Virus record (IMG/VR): IMGVR_UViG_3300037245_001837
Location: 10,396-74,395 of that record
Strand: one strand, 5' to 3'
Length of the DNA stretch: 64,000 nucleotides
Source: a virus
The notes below the pieces were generated by a model, which saw only the letters and a list, made by a program, of their open reading frames with translations, was not told the origin of the DNA and searched no databases. Of the stretch, positions 1,683 to 55,726 are shown in pieces; the stretch's first letter is position 1; each line of letters starts with the position of its first letter. A program made the position numbers and the translations under genes.

Positions 1683-2168
1683 ATGGATTTTAATTTCAAA
1701 CAAAAAACAAGACAACCTTATGTTGTATTACTTAATTTTACAGCCTATGAATTAGGTCAAAAACCAATTAAGTACTGGAGAAATACAGGTAATGTAAATA
1801 GAAAATCAGCCTTTCATAAAATAATTAATAAGGTTAAAAATATATGTGGTGATCCTACTAGTAATACAATTACTCGTTTATTTCATTACGCAGGAGCAGA
1901 TGTGACATTTCCATTTCACGTTCAATGGATGGAAGATAAGTTTGAATTTTGTTTATTTGATTGTTTTGGTAGTGGAAACAACACTTTAAAGTTTTCCAGA
2001 AAAGTAAATAGCGATAACGAGAGATTTACTAAAAATGAATTAAAGTTAATGACCGATTTTATGGTTACGGAACATCATATAATTACTGGTTTATATAATA
2101 AGTTTAGAGATGAATTTAAAACCTCATCAGGACATTCAAAAGTATTTGAAATAATAAGAAAATTATAA
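1683..2168 (+). CDS. Hypothetical protein
   Basis: ORF track. Confidence 0.7.
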   Translation: MDFNFKQKTRQPYVVLLNFTAYELGQKPIKYWRNTGNVNRKSAFHKIINKVKNICGDPTSNTITRLFHYAGADVTFPFHVQWMEDKFEFCLFDCFGSGNNTLKFSRKVNSDNERFTKNELKLMTDFMVTEHHIITGLYNKFRDEFKTSSGHSKVFEIIRKL

Positions 2169-2299
2169 AGTTATGACAGCCAAAGAAGAAGCACATTTAT
2201 ATCGTGAAATGCAGGAGGATTTACTTTTAGACATGGACATGTCTGGAGGATTATATTTAGAGTATGAAAAATTTGAAAAATAAATTAATAAATAGAAAT

Positions 2300-3361
2300 A
2301 TGAAAACAAAAATCGTTGGTACGCAGTTTGCCAAAGCAGAAGCAATTGGAATCCAAGAGGGTTCTGAAATTACTATCAGTCACGAACCTACAAATCCATT
2401 TGATGAAAACGCATTAGCGGTTGCATTTAATGGAGAGAAAATAGGTTTCATTGGAAAAGGTACGGACATCTATGATATAGATAGAATAAACTTTCCTAAA
2501 ACTGCAAAGGTTATTGATTTCTACATAAAGGAAGAAGGTGATCAATTTACAAAGCATCAATTAGGAACTTTAGTCTCCTGTAATATTGAACTTCCTGATG
2601 AAGTAAAATTAAAAGGAAAAGATAATGTTAATTCATTCAATGAAGAAAACGTTGTTATTAATTTTAATGAAGATTCTCATACTTACACCTACAAAGGTAA
2701 AGTTTTAAAAGGTGCCACGACTTACATCAAAAAGTATATCAAACCATTCGATAGTGAACTTATGGTTGGTAGATGTGCAAAAGCTTGGAATTTACCAAAA
2801 GGAACTATTGAAGATGCTTGGGAACTTAATCGTGATTTAGCTTCTCAATTCGGAACAGCTTTGCATAAGGCTCTGGAATTTGAGGATTTGTATAGGAGTA
2901 TGAAAAAACCAAAAGACAATAGCAGATGTTTTACAATTAAACATCCTACAATTGTTAAAATAATCACAGAATTCTATGAATTAAACGAGAAATTAGGTTT
3001 TGAAGGTGAAATTATTCCTGAAGCATTGGTTTCTGATGTTGAAAATGGTATTTGTGGTTTAGCGGATAGAATTCTAGTTACCAGTTGGAATGAAAAACGA
3101 TGTAGAATTCAGGATTACAAAGTGAACCATTCATTTAATGTAAAAGGAAAGGAAAGCTTCATTAATCTACCTAAAGGTTTGGTTTTAGAATCTACAAAAC
3201 TTTCAAAACTTTCATTACAATTGAAATTTCACGCAACTATGTTGGAGAAACAAGGTTGGACAGTTGAAGGAGTTGATGGATTTGTCTACACAGATAAATG
3301 GGAATATTATGAAGCCAACTCTTTAGAAGGTTTCGATATTTTAAAAGGAACTTTCAACTAA
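2300..3361 (+). CDS. HIRAN domain fused to PD-(D/E)XK (Cas4/lambda-exo-like) nuclease
   Basis: HEPTNPFDENALAV...KIGFI HIRAN motif; FGTALHKALE, PE, CGLADRI, IQDYK nuclease motifs; ATG 2300 preferred over 2264. Confidence 0.8.
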   Translation: MKTKIVGTQFAKAEAIGIQEGSEITISHEPTNPFDENALAVAFNGEKIGFIGKGTDIYDIDRINFPKTAKVIDFYIKEEGDQFTKHQLGTLVSCNIELPDEVKLKGKDNVNSFNEENVVINFNEDSHTYTYKGKVLKGATTYIKKYIKPFDSELMVGRCAKAWNLPKGTIEDAWELNRDLASQFGTALHKALEFEDLYRSMKKPKDNSRCFTIKHPTIVKIITEFYELNEKLGFEGEIIPEALVSDVENGICGLADRILVTSWNEKRCRIQDYKVNHSFNVKGKESFINLPKGLVLESTKLSKLSLQLKFHATMLEKQGWTVEGVDGFVYTDKWEYYEANSLEGFDILKGTFN

Positions 3362-52278: not shown

Positions 52279-52941
52279 ATGGCTAAACCAAAAAAATGCA
52301 AAGGAACTGGACAGGCTAAAGGTTTTGGATGTAATAAACCTTTAACCTTTTCAGAGTCAAATGGAATTAAAAGTTATAATTCAAAATACGGATTATGTCC
52401 AACTTGTCAATACGAATGGGCAACTACTAATGATGCAGGAAAGGTTTGGTTTCAGAAAAGTTTAATTTCTAATAAGAAGAAAAAGGAAAAAGAAGAAAAC
52501 GCAATACACAGAGAAAAGAAAAGATCTATTGATGAGACAGGAGCAATGCGATTAGCTGATATGTATTTCAGTAGATACATAAGAGTTCTTTATAGTGATG
52601 ATAATGGATATTGTACTTGTTACACTTGTGGAACTGATGTTTTTTTAAAAGAATTGGATAACGGACACTATCAGAAAAGGGAGCATAAAGCAACAAGGTA
52701 TCACGAAAATAATTGCAGACCACAATGCAAAACTTGTAATGGAGATACAAAGCACAATGGCAAACAGGCAGAGTTCAGAGTTCACCTATCAAACGAAATT
52801 GGAGAAGAAGAAGTATCAGAAATCGAAAGATTAGCTAATACAACTATAAAAGCAAATTCACTGTTCTTTAGAAATATAGCAGATTCATATCGAATAAAAT
52901 CTAATGAACTTCAAAAAATAAAAAAAGTAAAACACTGGTAA
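52279..52941 (+). CDS. NinG/Rap-like recombination endonuclease
   Basis: FSRYIR...CTCYTCG...DNGHY...TRYHENNCRPQCKTCN. Confidence 0.88.
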   Translation: MAKPKKCKGTGQAKGFGCNKPLTFSESNGIKSYNSKYGLCPTCQYEWATTNDAGKVWFQKSLISNKKKKEKEENAIHREKKRSIDETGAMRLADMYFSRYIRVLYSDDNGYCTCYTCGTDVFLKELDNGHYQKREHKATRYHENNCRPQCKTCNGDTKHNGKQAEFRVHLSNEIGEEEVSEIERLANTTIKANSLFFRNIADSYRIKSNELQKIKKVKHW

Positions 52942-53993: not shown

Positions 53994-54725
53994 ATGGAAA
54001 CTAAAAGCAATGAAATTGTAATTAAAACCTCAAAGTTAGAGGAAATGAAAGGTAAATATTTAGCAGAAAGACTTTTAAGAACTTGGGCTGAAGATTTTGT
54101 TGATCAGGATACTTCAGAAGTAGTCTCAATAGAGCGAAATGAGATTATTTTAGAAAAAGGAACTTTATTAGAGGGCAAAGAATTAACAGAAGTTAATTTC
54201 TTTTTGCAAAGCGGTGATGTTAAATCTGTTTCTGTTAGTAATCAAGAAAGAGGTTGTAGTTTAGTATATGGTAATTCTGCTGTTTGGATGGCTAAAATAA
54301 AATTAAACGGAAAGAATAAAACTATTTATTTATATGCAAATTCCGTTCAATCTGCAACAAATATTTGTATAGATTATGTTGAGCAAAAATATGTCGGAAA
54401 CTTTAAATTCATAGGCATAAAGGAAATAGATTATAGCACTCTAATATCTTTAGATATGAAAGAAGAGGATGCTTCAGAAGAAAACGATTATTATAAAACA
54501 GAAGTTGAGGTTACTTATGAAAATGATGAGCCAATCAATGAAGTTTATATAATAAATGCTTCCAATGCAGAAAAAGCTAAAACTTCAATAATTGATTTTA
54601 TCACTATTAATAATGAAAAGAAAAATGAATCAACTCCTTTTTATGTAACAATTATTTCTGCAAAAACAATTCCTTGTGATGACATAATTGATGTTGATTT
54701 TTCTAAATCATATTTAATAGAATAA
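53994..54725 (+). CDS. RpoB insertion-domain homologue fused to DUF4494-like tandem domains
   Basis: [33 protein letters not shown] resembles Bacteroidota RpoB; two C-terminal repeats resemble DUF4494. Confidence 0.75.
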   Translation: [243 protein letters not shown]

Positions 54726-54728
54726 ATA

Positions 54729-55109
54729 ATGGAAAAAGAATATCTACATAAAAAAGTAATAAAAGTACCGTTATACAAAGGTTTATTAGTTTTAATATTT
54801 TCTAATTCAGTAGAAAAAGTAAAACAAGTTGTTAAGGATTATAATAGAAATAGTGTTTACGCTCATGCTTGGCGTTTCAATTATAAAGGAAAAGAAGGAA
54901 ATGCCATAATACTCAACTTTAATAATGATGAGAAATTAACTCATGGTACTATTGCTCACGAAGCTTACCACATAGCTAATTTCATAGCGGATTCAAGAGG
55001 TTTAATACCAGATCACATTAATGATGAGCCAATAGCTTATTTGATAACTTGGATAACAAATGAGGTTTATAAATTTATGAATAAAAATAATTTCAAAATA
55101 GAAAAATAA
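54729..55109 (+). CDS. Small HExxH metallopeptidase-like protein
   Basis: TIAHEAYH...NDEPIAYLITWI. Confidence 0.75.
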   Translation: MEKEYLHKKVIKVPLYKGLLVLIFSNSVEKVKQVVKDYNRNSVYAHAWRFNYKGKEGNAIILNFNNDEKLTHGTIAHEAYHIANFIADSRGLIPDHINDEPIAYLITWITNEVYKFMNKNNFKIEK

Positions 55110-55726
55110 TGGCAAAAAAAACAGAGGTTACAGATTCAAAAACAAAAAAGATAAACCAATTTACAGGTGGTAAAATTGAGACTTTTACTATTCCTGATTA
55201 CCCTAAAAGTTGTGGAGATGGAAAACTTCCAGATTCTTTTTTAGCGAAAGACGGTACTTATATTGGAGACTACTCAAAAGGATTATGGTATTTGAAGCAT
55301 AATATGTTAGTGTGTTTTGAATATCCTTCTGGAGTTAGTATAATTTTAAAACACCCTGTAAAAGAATACCTATATCTTGACTCTTACATGACAGATGGTA
55401 TTGTTGGAGGTGATGATACTGAAGCTTATTATGGGTATTCTCATAGAGGTGGTAATAAATTTAAAATTGGTGATCGTTTATTTGATCCTAGTTATGAACC
55501 AAAAGAAGAAGATTACACTAAGGAAGAGTGGGAAGGATTTAAAGCTGATAGAGAAAAATCTATTTTAAGAAATATCAAAGACGGTTTCTGTAAAAACAGA
55601 GAAGAAGCAGAAAAAGAAACCCCATTGGCTGCTGTAATAACATTCAATAAAAGAGGCTCTAAGGTTATAGAGACTTGGGATGAAGCAAAACAGGCAGCTA
55701 TTAACTTATCTAAGGATTTATCATAA
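55109..55726 (+). CDS. Conserved phage protein
   Basis: DGTYIGD...YYGYSHRG...FKIGD...EAKQAAIN. Confidence 0.75.
   Translation: MAKKTEVTDSKTKKINQFTGGKIETFTIPDYPKSCGDGKLPDSFLAKDGTYIGDYSKGLWYLKHNMLVCFEYPSGVSIILKHPVKEYLYLDSYMTDGIVGGDDTEAYYGYSHRGGNKFKIGDRLFDPSYEPKEEDYTKEEWEGFKADREKSILRNIKDGFCKNREEAEKETPLAAVITFNKRGSKVIETWDEAKQAAINLSKDLS

Follow-up and report, generated by a model that had tools for sequence, protein, structure and literature searches.

The 243-residue phage protein examined here, P0001, carries at its N-terminus a copy of a piece of the RNA polymerase of Bacteroidota. Its gene is the open reading frame (ORF) at positions 53994-54725 on the (+) strand of the window, the 64,000-nucleotide stretch of DNA that we analysed, which spans bases 10396-74395 of an IMG/VR phage genome of 74,395 bp that has direct terminal repeats (IMGVR_UViG_3300037245_001837; G+C content of about 29-30%). 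The N-terminal 88 residues are a complete BEAN domain copied from a Bacteroidota-type rpoB gene, where the same domain forms an insertion in the beta lobe of the polymerase, and they are fused to a C-terminal half that resembles the domain DUF4494. This anatomy had been read from the letters in an initial annotation of the sequence, and it was borne out: the ORF exists as described, its N-terminal segment aligns significantly with RpoB and its C-terminal half is related to DUF4494. Because the RpoB copy is joined to a DUF4494-like domain, and because the gene keeps company with recombination and replication genes, the protein probably recruits or soaks up a host factor that acts at this spot of the polymerase. 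More specifically, we tentatively propose that P0001 mimics the surface of the host RNA polymerase beta lobe on which partners dock, and that it may thereby recruit or sequester the helicase UvrD/PcrA.

The copy was recognized both by sequence and by structure. When P0001 was compared with all PDB sequences using phmmer, residues 5-81 aligned with residues 222-294 of RpoB in 9n9p_C (E = 8e-14), a chain of the RNA polymerase of Flagellimonas taeanensis, a member of the Flavobacteriaceae (bioRxiv 10.1101/2025.06.10.658880), and a second RpoB match was to the P. gingivalis protein (8dkc_C, E = 5e-4). The AlphaFold2 model of P0001, built with 67 homologues, is confident, with a predicted local distance difference test score (pLDDT) of 90.5 and a predicted TM-score (pTM) of 0.75, and the N-terminal domain reaches a pLDDT of about 90-96. 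Its best structural match in the PDB by Foldseek is again the F. taeanensis RpoB (9n9q_F, E = 6e-5, 82 columns, root-mean-square deviation (rmsd) 2.9). The Flavobacteriaceae RpoB string that the initial annotation had given matches the solved chain 9n9p_C, 27 of the 38 quoted positions being identical by hand count; the phage peptide that it quoted, GKYLAE...LEKGT, is real and covers residues 20-57 (nucleotides 54051-54164), although the range of 54045-54243 given for it was wider.

A structural comparison of residues 1-87 with VIA-align placed the domain in a larger family. The highest Z among the named matches was that of MoeA (Z 6.9), followed by insertions of plastid and cyanobacterial RNA polymerase beta subunits at positions 218-307 (Z 6.4-6.5) and by the E. 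coli beta lobe with its SI1 insertion (7egs_A, 225-337, Z 5.5, rmsd 2.4 over 57 residues); further matches were an M. tuberculosis beta' insert and Orn/Lys/Arg decarboxylases. This set corresponds to the membership of the BEAN domain, the older BBM2 module, which comprises MoeA, decarboxylases and inserts of the RNA polymerase beta and beta' subunits (PMC11515920). The BEAN fold consists of two brackets, each of a helix plus two strands, and occurs also in archaeal uL10, and a TGD/E motif is peculiar to its RNA polymerase beta copies (PMC11515920). Since the Z values for the N-terminal domain are individually modest, it is mainly the sequence match that carries the BEAN assignment.

The Bacteroidota RpoB insertion and the phage N-terminal domain have in common a significant homology, the fold, the TGD/E signature and the consensus of a hairpin. 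The phage domain differs in that it is free-standing at the N-terminus of a small protein instead of being embedded in a polymerase subunit, its flanks and its C-terminal third are different, it has a 4-residue insertion and it forms its own clade. When one genome per prokaryotic species was scanned with a pattern, rpoB was matched in at least 585 places, and 80 of these loci were kept. In these 80 Bacteroidota loci the rpoB ORFs encode about 1270 aa and the match begins at about residues 220-260 (tblastn E of about 1e-16), so that the insertion is phylum-wide in Bacteroidota RpoB. The same scan, whose pattern falls in the shared hairpin, returned rpoB loci only and no prophage context. As a separate observation, QFQQ01000006.1 (78833-95069), labelled 'MAG: Citrobacter freundii', contains an rpoB gene with a Bacteroidota-type insertion, and either the bin or the label is probably contaminated.

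Where E. coli has SI1 (beta-i4), which is made of two BEAN units, Bacteroidota RpoB has a single one of about 75 residues. One could therefore imagine a pairing of the BEAN domain of the phage with this single unit of the host, so that the two imitate the E. coli tandem and the DUF4494-like half is parked on the beta lobe, where it would alter transcription. The lobe is indeed a known target surface of regulators. However, the gene sits in a recombination and replication context and not among early host take-over genes, and we regard such a pairing as distinctly improbable.

The part of the domain that phage and host have kept in common lies in one block. Between 148 phage copies and the 80 RpoB segments, the consensus sequences agree over about 20 positions while the flanks differ, and the mean phage-to-RpoB identity across the domain is 34%. 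The RpoB frequencies at W, E, D, F and D of this block are inflated by the search pattern; an 11-letter part of the block fell outside the pattern. In the AlphaFold2 model the block folds into two strands, 27-36 and 43-53, that form a beta-hairpin and are joined by a loop containing DQDTSE. Using hydrogen-deuterium exchange mass spectrometry, mutagenesis and pull-downs, Urrutia-Irazabal et al. (2021; PMC8318588) established that PcrA uses its C-terminal Tudor domain to bind a hairpin of the B. subtilis RpoB SI1, through a motif [VIL]-D-x-x-T-G-E-[VIL]-[VILT] that is also present in E. coli SI1, UvrB, YxaL and YwhK. The same study places the motif in the loop between the two strands, at the tip of a solvent-exposed hairpin, describes its glutamate as essential and depicts a helicase contested between UvrB and RNA polymerase.

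The tip of the Bacteroidota insertion, VDEDTGEVV, fits this motif exactly in 79 of the 80 RpoB segments. The phage family consensus at the tip is identical to that of RpoB and therefore fits the published pattern as well, the commonest forms being VDEDTSEVV and VDEDTGEVV. The window copy, VDQDTSEVV, misses the strict pattern by a G to S change and retains the threonine and the essential glutamate. Across the 148 phage copies, the threonine is found in 122 (82%), the glycine in 116 (78%), the glutamate in 77%, and either glutamate or aspartate in 126. This retention is above the mean column identity of the family (46%), yet far from invariant. The phage family resembles the carriers of the PcrA/UvrD motif (RpoB SI1, UvrB, YxaL and YwhK) in having, at the level of its consensus, a hairpin with a T-G-E triad at the tip. 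The initial annotation had suggested a mimic that titrates some factor; the copied tip now provides a concrete candidate for this factor, UvrD/PcrA, which the hairpin would be expected to bind.

On the bacterial side, the title of 7egs describes a complex of the E. coli lobe with the UvrD C-terminal domain, and it is on chain A of this crystal structure that the phage domain superposes; a literature search on 7EGS found no text. [quoted passage not shown] With this homologue, what an RpoB-UvrD contact would require is present in the host lineage, and it is the RpoB side of such a contact that the phage protein copies.

Several observations weigh against the proposal that P0001 is a docking mimic for UvrD/PcrA. 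The strict motif is fitted by only 27 of the 148 phage copies (18%), and the window copy itself has a serine in place of the tip glycine, so that the family differs in this respect from the established carriers and is best called a candidate carrier. The essential glutamate, which is invariant in RpoB, is replaced in 23% of the phage copies, by D, Q, N and K among others. The residues that are invariant in the family, W31, F35 and E50, are in the strands and not at the tip, and they may reflect the stability of the fold alone. Moreover, the phylogenetic tree described below gives no sign that the phage domain tracks host RpoB variants, and to our knowledge a UvrD-RpoB interaction has not been demonstrated in any Bacteroidota. 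A pattern search of the Maribacter UvrB did not find the helicase interaction motif, which speaks in the same direction, although we treated this result as neutral. It may be that some members of the family no longer have the interaction or have altered it, or that the conservation mostly reflects structure.

The latter idea leads to an explanation without any mimicry, in which the BEAN domain would be a sturdy scaffold inherited from an old capture and the protein would serve recombination or replication, for example by binding DNA or single-stranded DNA-binding protein (SSB) or as an accessory of NinB/Orf or Sak4, with no relation to the partners of RNA polymerase. The conserved recombination/replication module around the gene would suit such a role, and BEAN domains are present in proteins as unrelated as MoeA, decarboxylases and archaeal uL10 (PMC11515920). 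The location of the invariant residues in the strands, the drift of the motif tip in many members and a single capture with no host tracking in view point the same way. However, some 20 consecutive consensus positions still shared with RpoB after a long divergence, in spite of the mean identity given above, exceed what a fold usually requires, and it is the N-terminal domain that is the better-conserved half of the protein. We therefore find this explanation rather unlikely.

The fusion is shared by a large phage family. P0001 matches phrog_35807 over its full length (E = 3.2e-58, with residues 2-241 aligned to positions 8-276 of the 283-position profile); this PHROG is the family itself and has no annotation and no assigned function. 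A word-indexed search yielded 68 full-length relatives, some of them in Tenacibaculum, Aestuariibaculum, Flavobacterium, Christiangramia and Capnocytophaga assemblies, and an exhaustive search with the C-terminal half yielded 100 cluster representatives, nearly all of 240-295 aa, in which this half begins at about residue 90-115. Relatives are encoded on 376 IMG/VR contigs. With hidden Markov models (HMMs) of the two halves, both were found in every entry save three unrelated long proteins matching neither and a few short, evidently truncated ones, so that the BEAN-DUF4494 fusion is a fixed feature of about 90 representatives (50% identity). In distant members the N-terminal half generally scores equal to or above the C-terminal half. 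In the ESM Atlas, the protein falls near a cluster of 2,739 members, mostly viral; the automatic cluster name, 'RNA polymerase subunit sigma family protein', was rejected, as there is no sequence resemblance to sigma.

In a tree of the 148 phage N-terminal domains and the 80 RpoB segments, calculated from 95 columns only, the two groups are split on one branch with a Shimodaira-Hasegawa (SH)-like support of 99. Because of this separation on one branch, the tree points to a domain that was captured once and then spread vertically in phages; on the same ground we rejected, for this sample, that the domain was acquired several times or that it follows host RpoB variants. We also looked for other arrangements of the domain. 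As to a free-standing BEAN protein, only two short sequences (86 and 99 aa) came up, apparently truncated or chimeric at the domain boundary, and a second architecture in deposited phage genomes was discarded, as the sole tblastn match, MT836236, is a bacterial rplL-rpoB fragment filed as phage. This entry (MT836236.1, 898-7041, 'UNVERIFIED: Bacteriophage sp.', from human faeces) contains rplL followed by a Bacteroidota-type rpoB split over two frames, and represents either a bacterial fragment or a frameshifted assembly.

We then considered the C-terminal half. The comparisons support the view that residues ~90-243 form a divergent, distantly related DUF4494-type domain made of two beta-beta-alpha-beta-beta units. 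P0001 by itself scores 14.1 bits (E = 0.044) against DUF4494 (PF14902), which is below the Pfam gathering cut-off of 27 bits, and 24 of the 67 family members match PF14902 at E <= 0.01, the best at 4e-6. With hhalign, the profile of the phage family aligned with that of 21 chromosomal DUF4494 proteins over 102 colinear columns (probability 70.6%, E = 3.9e-5). In agreement, Foldseek searches of BFVD retrieved DUF4494 proteins of Tenacibaculum phage pT24, of a siphovirus and of a crAss-like virus (E = 3e-4 to 8e-3, TM up to 0.62), and the AlphaFold2 models of P0001 and of a Maribacter DUF4494 protein have in common the order of elements (beta-beta-alpha-beta-beta) x2. The internal duplication is clear in host DUF4494 (hhalign 98.5%, E = 2e-15) and faint in the phage protein (hhalign 35%, E = 4e-4). 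Thus, where the initial annotation had seen two DUF4494-like repeats, the likeness to DUF4494 is real but remote, and the repeat is barely discernible in the phage protein itself. Unlike the stand-alone DUF4494 proteins of Bacteroidota and their phages (about 140-200 aa), P0001 has a BEAN domain in front and no acidic tail such as that of the host proteins. As a single query, the C-terminal half gave no match in 301 Flavobacteriaceae genomes or in viral contigs; a profile was needed to retrieve the relatives on the viral contigs. An NCBIfam search gave no match, and a literature search on DUF4494 found no text.

Host DUF4494 (PF14902) was present in 35 of the 401 Bacteroidota genomes sampled, in one of five Flavobacteriia and, of the control genomes, in B. 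thetaiotaomicron. There is almost always one copy per genome; the protein scores 90-214 bits and frequently has an acidic tail, and its gene is surrounded by varied housekeeping genes such as YggS-like and EngB-like ones. In Maribacter, the DUF4494 gene (L082 1489-2046 (+), product of 185 aa with a clear internal duplication and an acidic C-terminal tail) is convergent to a gene whose 167-aa product has a GreA/GreB C-terminal domain (2129-2632 (-), E = 1e-21); this pairing is not kept in the other 20 loci.

These data bear on the second option offered by the initial annotation, a Rosetta-stone fusion. DUF4494 would then be an unrecognized partner of the RpoB BEAN insertion, and the phage protein either a covalent version of the pair or a means by which its DUF4494-like half sits on RNA polymerase to modulate transcription. 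Such a reading could account for the fixation of the two-module fusion across the family and for the existence of DUF4494 as a stand-alone protein in phages and in Bacteroidota chromosomes, with its single conserved copy, its housekeeping neighbours and its acidic tail; the pTM of the model, for a protein in three parts, suggests in addition that these parts are packed against each other. The repeats are also faintly similar in fold to T7 Gp2 (Z 4.9) and to 6wvk_E, chain E of a B. subtilis RNA polymerase-HelD structure (Z 4.3), but these scores are at the background level of the aligner. Transcription genes are conserved neither beside the phage family nor beside host DUF4494. The patchy distribution of host DUF4494, as opposed to an RpoB insertion that is universal in Bacteroidota, weakens the Rosetta-stone idea. 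A predicted complex of the Maribacter DUF4494 (residues 1-150) with the Maribacter RpoB lobe (321 residues) scored 0.21 against a mark of 0.32 and was run without controls, so that it counts neither way. Altogether, a partnership of this kind seems unlikely, and the mimic is the better supported of the two options.

How could a docking mimic for UvrD/PcrA benefit the phage? We envisage that the N-terminal domain would bind the host helicase of UvrD/PcrA type, or another factor that docks on the same hairpin in Bacteroidota. The bound factor might then be drawn off RNA polymerase and repair, or it might be passed to the recombination and replication machinery of the phage; in both cases the DUF4494-like half could act as the effector or as a second binding module. 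The gene contexts of the family are compatible with such a role. Among 80 IMG/VR loci (L103-L182), a NinB/Orf recombination mediator is encoded directly upstream in 38 (phrog_72, E = 8e-19) and NinG downstream in 37, and in the window NinG lies at 52279-52941. The other conserved neighbours are a DUF3127/SSB protein, an AAA_24 (Sak4-like) ATPase, a superfamily 2 (SF2) helicase, a DnaC-like loader and a Lin1244-type replication initiator, and a metallo-beta-lactamase (MBL)-fold protein and a DNA methylase are also conserved nearby. These neighbours make up a lambda-nin-like module for recombination and replication rather than an anti-defence island or a cluster of early host take-over genes, and the frequency of NinB/Orf and NinG makes the BEAN-DUF4494 gene a regular member of this block in Bacteroidota phages. 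As UvrD is an anti-recombinase and an accessory replicative helicase, the context fits, in a circumstantial way, a protein directed at UvrD.

In the window itself, the gene is flanked by genes for two proteins of anti-defence families, Acb3 and Tad6 (Table 1). The approximately 115 N-terminal residues of the former lie outside the Acb3 match and include a long hydrophobic stretch. Such a setting would suit an anti-defence decoy, directed at an immune sensor of this RNA polymerase surface, which the initial annotation had put forward as one form of the mimic. However, both flanking proteins are singletons of this phage among the 81 loci compared for neighbour counts, and the neighbours kept across the family are the recombination and replication genes listed above. 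Moreover, we know of no immune sensor of this surface. The defence-sensor version found no support here, and we consider it very improbable.

Table 1. Coordinates of the BEAN-DUF4494 gene, of its parts and of adjacent genes in the window
Feature	Positions	Strand	Evidence
Whole gene, member of phrog_35807	53994..54725	+	phrog_35807, E 3.2e-58; 68 full-length homologues
N-terminal domain (residues 1-88), RNA polymerase beta-type BEAN/BBM2, copied from the beta-lobe insertion of Bacteroidota RpoB (RpoB ~222-295)	53994..54257	+	phmmer, Foldseek, VIA-align
Beta-hairpin (residues 27-53), consensus near-identical in phage family and RpoB; block begins TW	54072..54152	+	AlphaFold2 strands E27-36, E43-53; 148 phage copies versus 80 RpoB segments
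Hairpin tip VDQDTSEVV (residues 36-44), one-off (G to S) variant of the PcrA/UvrD helicase interaction motif	54099..54125	+	Motif definition in PMC8318588; motif counts
DUF4494-like repeat 1 (residues ~93-151), beta-beta-alpha-beta-beta	54270..54446	+	AlphaFold2 E96-104, E107-115, H118-132, E137-144, E149-151; hhalign to DUF4494 repeat 1, 64.8%, E 6e-5
DUF4494-like repeat 2 and C-terminal helix (residues ~162-243)	54477..54722	+	AlphaFold2 E165-175, E181-189, H192-209, E216-226, H234-241; family hhalign; BFVD matches
Acb3-family protein (CBASS inhibitor), 288 aa	53099-53965	+	Residues 117-287 versus Pfam Acb3, E 1.6e-34; phrog_7203
126-aa protein with HEAYH (HExxH) motif, start 4 nt past the stop of the studied gene	54729-55109	+	Weak Pfam zincin-like matches (DUF5700, SprT-like); phrog_1365, E 3e-16
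Tad6-family protein (type I Thoeris inhibitor), 205 aa, two genes downstream	55109-55726	+	Pfam Tad6, E 2.4e-15; no PHROG match

Small phage proteins aimed at the host transcription apparatus are well represented by T7 Gp2, Xp10 P7 and T4 Alc, and the action of Alc depends on the SI1 region of the E. coli enzyme. These proteins bind the polymerase, whereas P0001, which has no sequence relation to them, copies a piece of it; as a consequence, P0001 would compete for the partners of the polymerase. The beta-lobe insertions are mostly of unknown function, those of Bacteroidota having been called uncharacterised (PMC11685472), and the Bacteroidota insertions have been said to 'likely interact with transcriptional factors' (bioRxiv 10.1101/2025.06.10.658880). 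A literature search on the F. johnsoniae RNA polymerase and on lineage-specific insertions gave nothing relevant among its 15 best matches. The named carriers of the helicase interaction motif in the excerpts of PMC8318588 (RpoB, UvrB, YxaL, YwhK, QueA, RplX and YtzB), where phages were not searched for, do not include a phage-encoded one.

The maintenance of a near-consensus copy of this domain in a widespread phage family marks the RpoB insertion as a contested interaction surface, and the phage domain could be used as a small soluble bait for finding the partner of the insertion. It is possible, although doubtful at this stage, that in many Bacteroidota phages the captured polymerase domain serves as a portable site on which UvrD/PcrA docks, and that these phages thereby disarm or redirect the helicase within their recombination/replication module. 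If this is true, helicase docking would be a function for the uncharacterised insertion of Bacteroidota RpoB, and the phages would use a new strategy in which a hub of host interactions is copied rather than bound, with the DUF4494 fold as the effector half. Were UvrD/PcrA the partner, the helicase interaction motif would here be carried by a phage-encoded protein, for which we know of no precedent; this would give a first functional handle on DUF4494 and would tie the recombination modules of these phages to the control of the host anti-recombinase.
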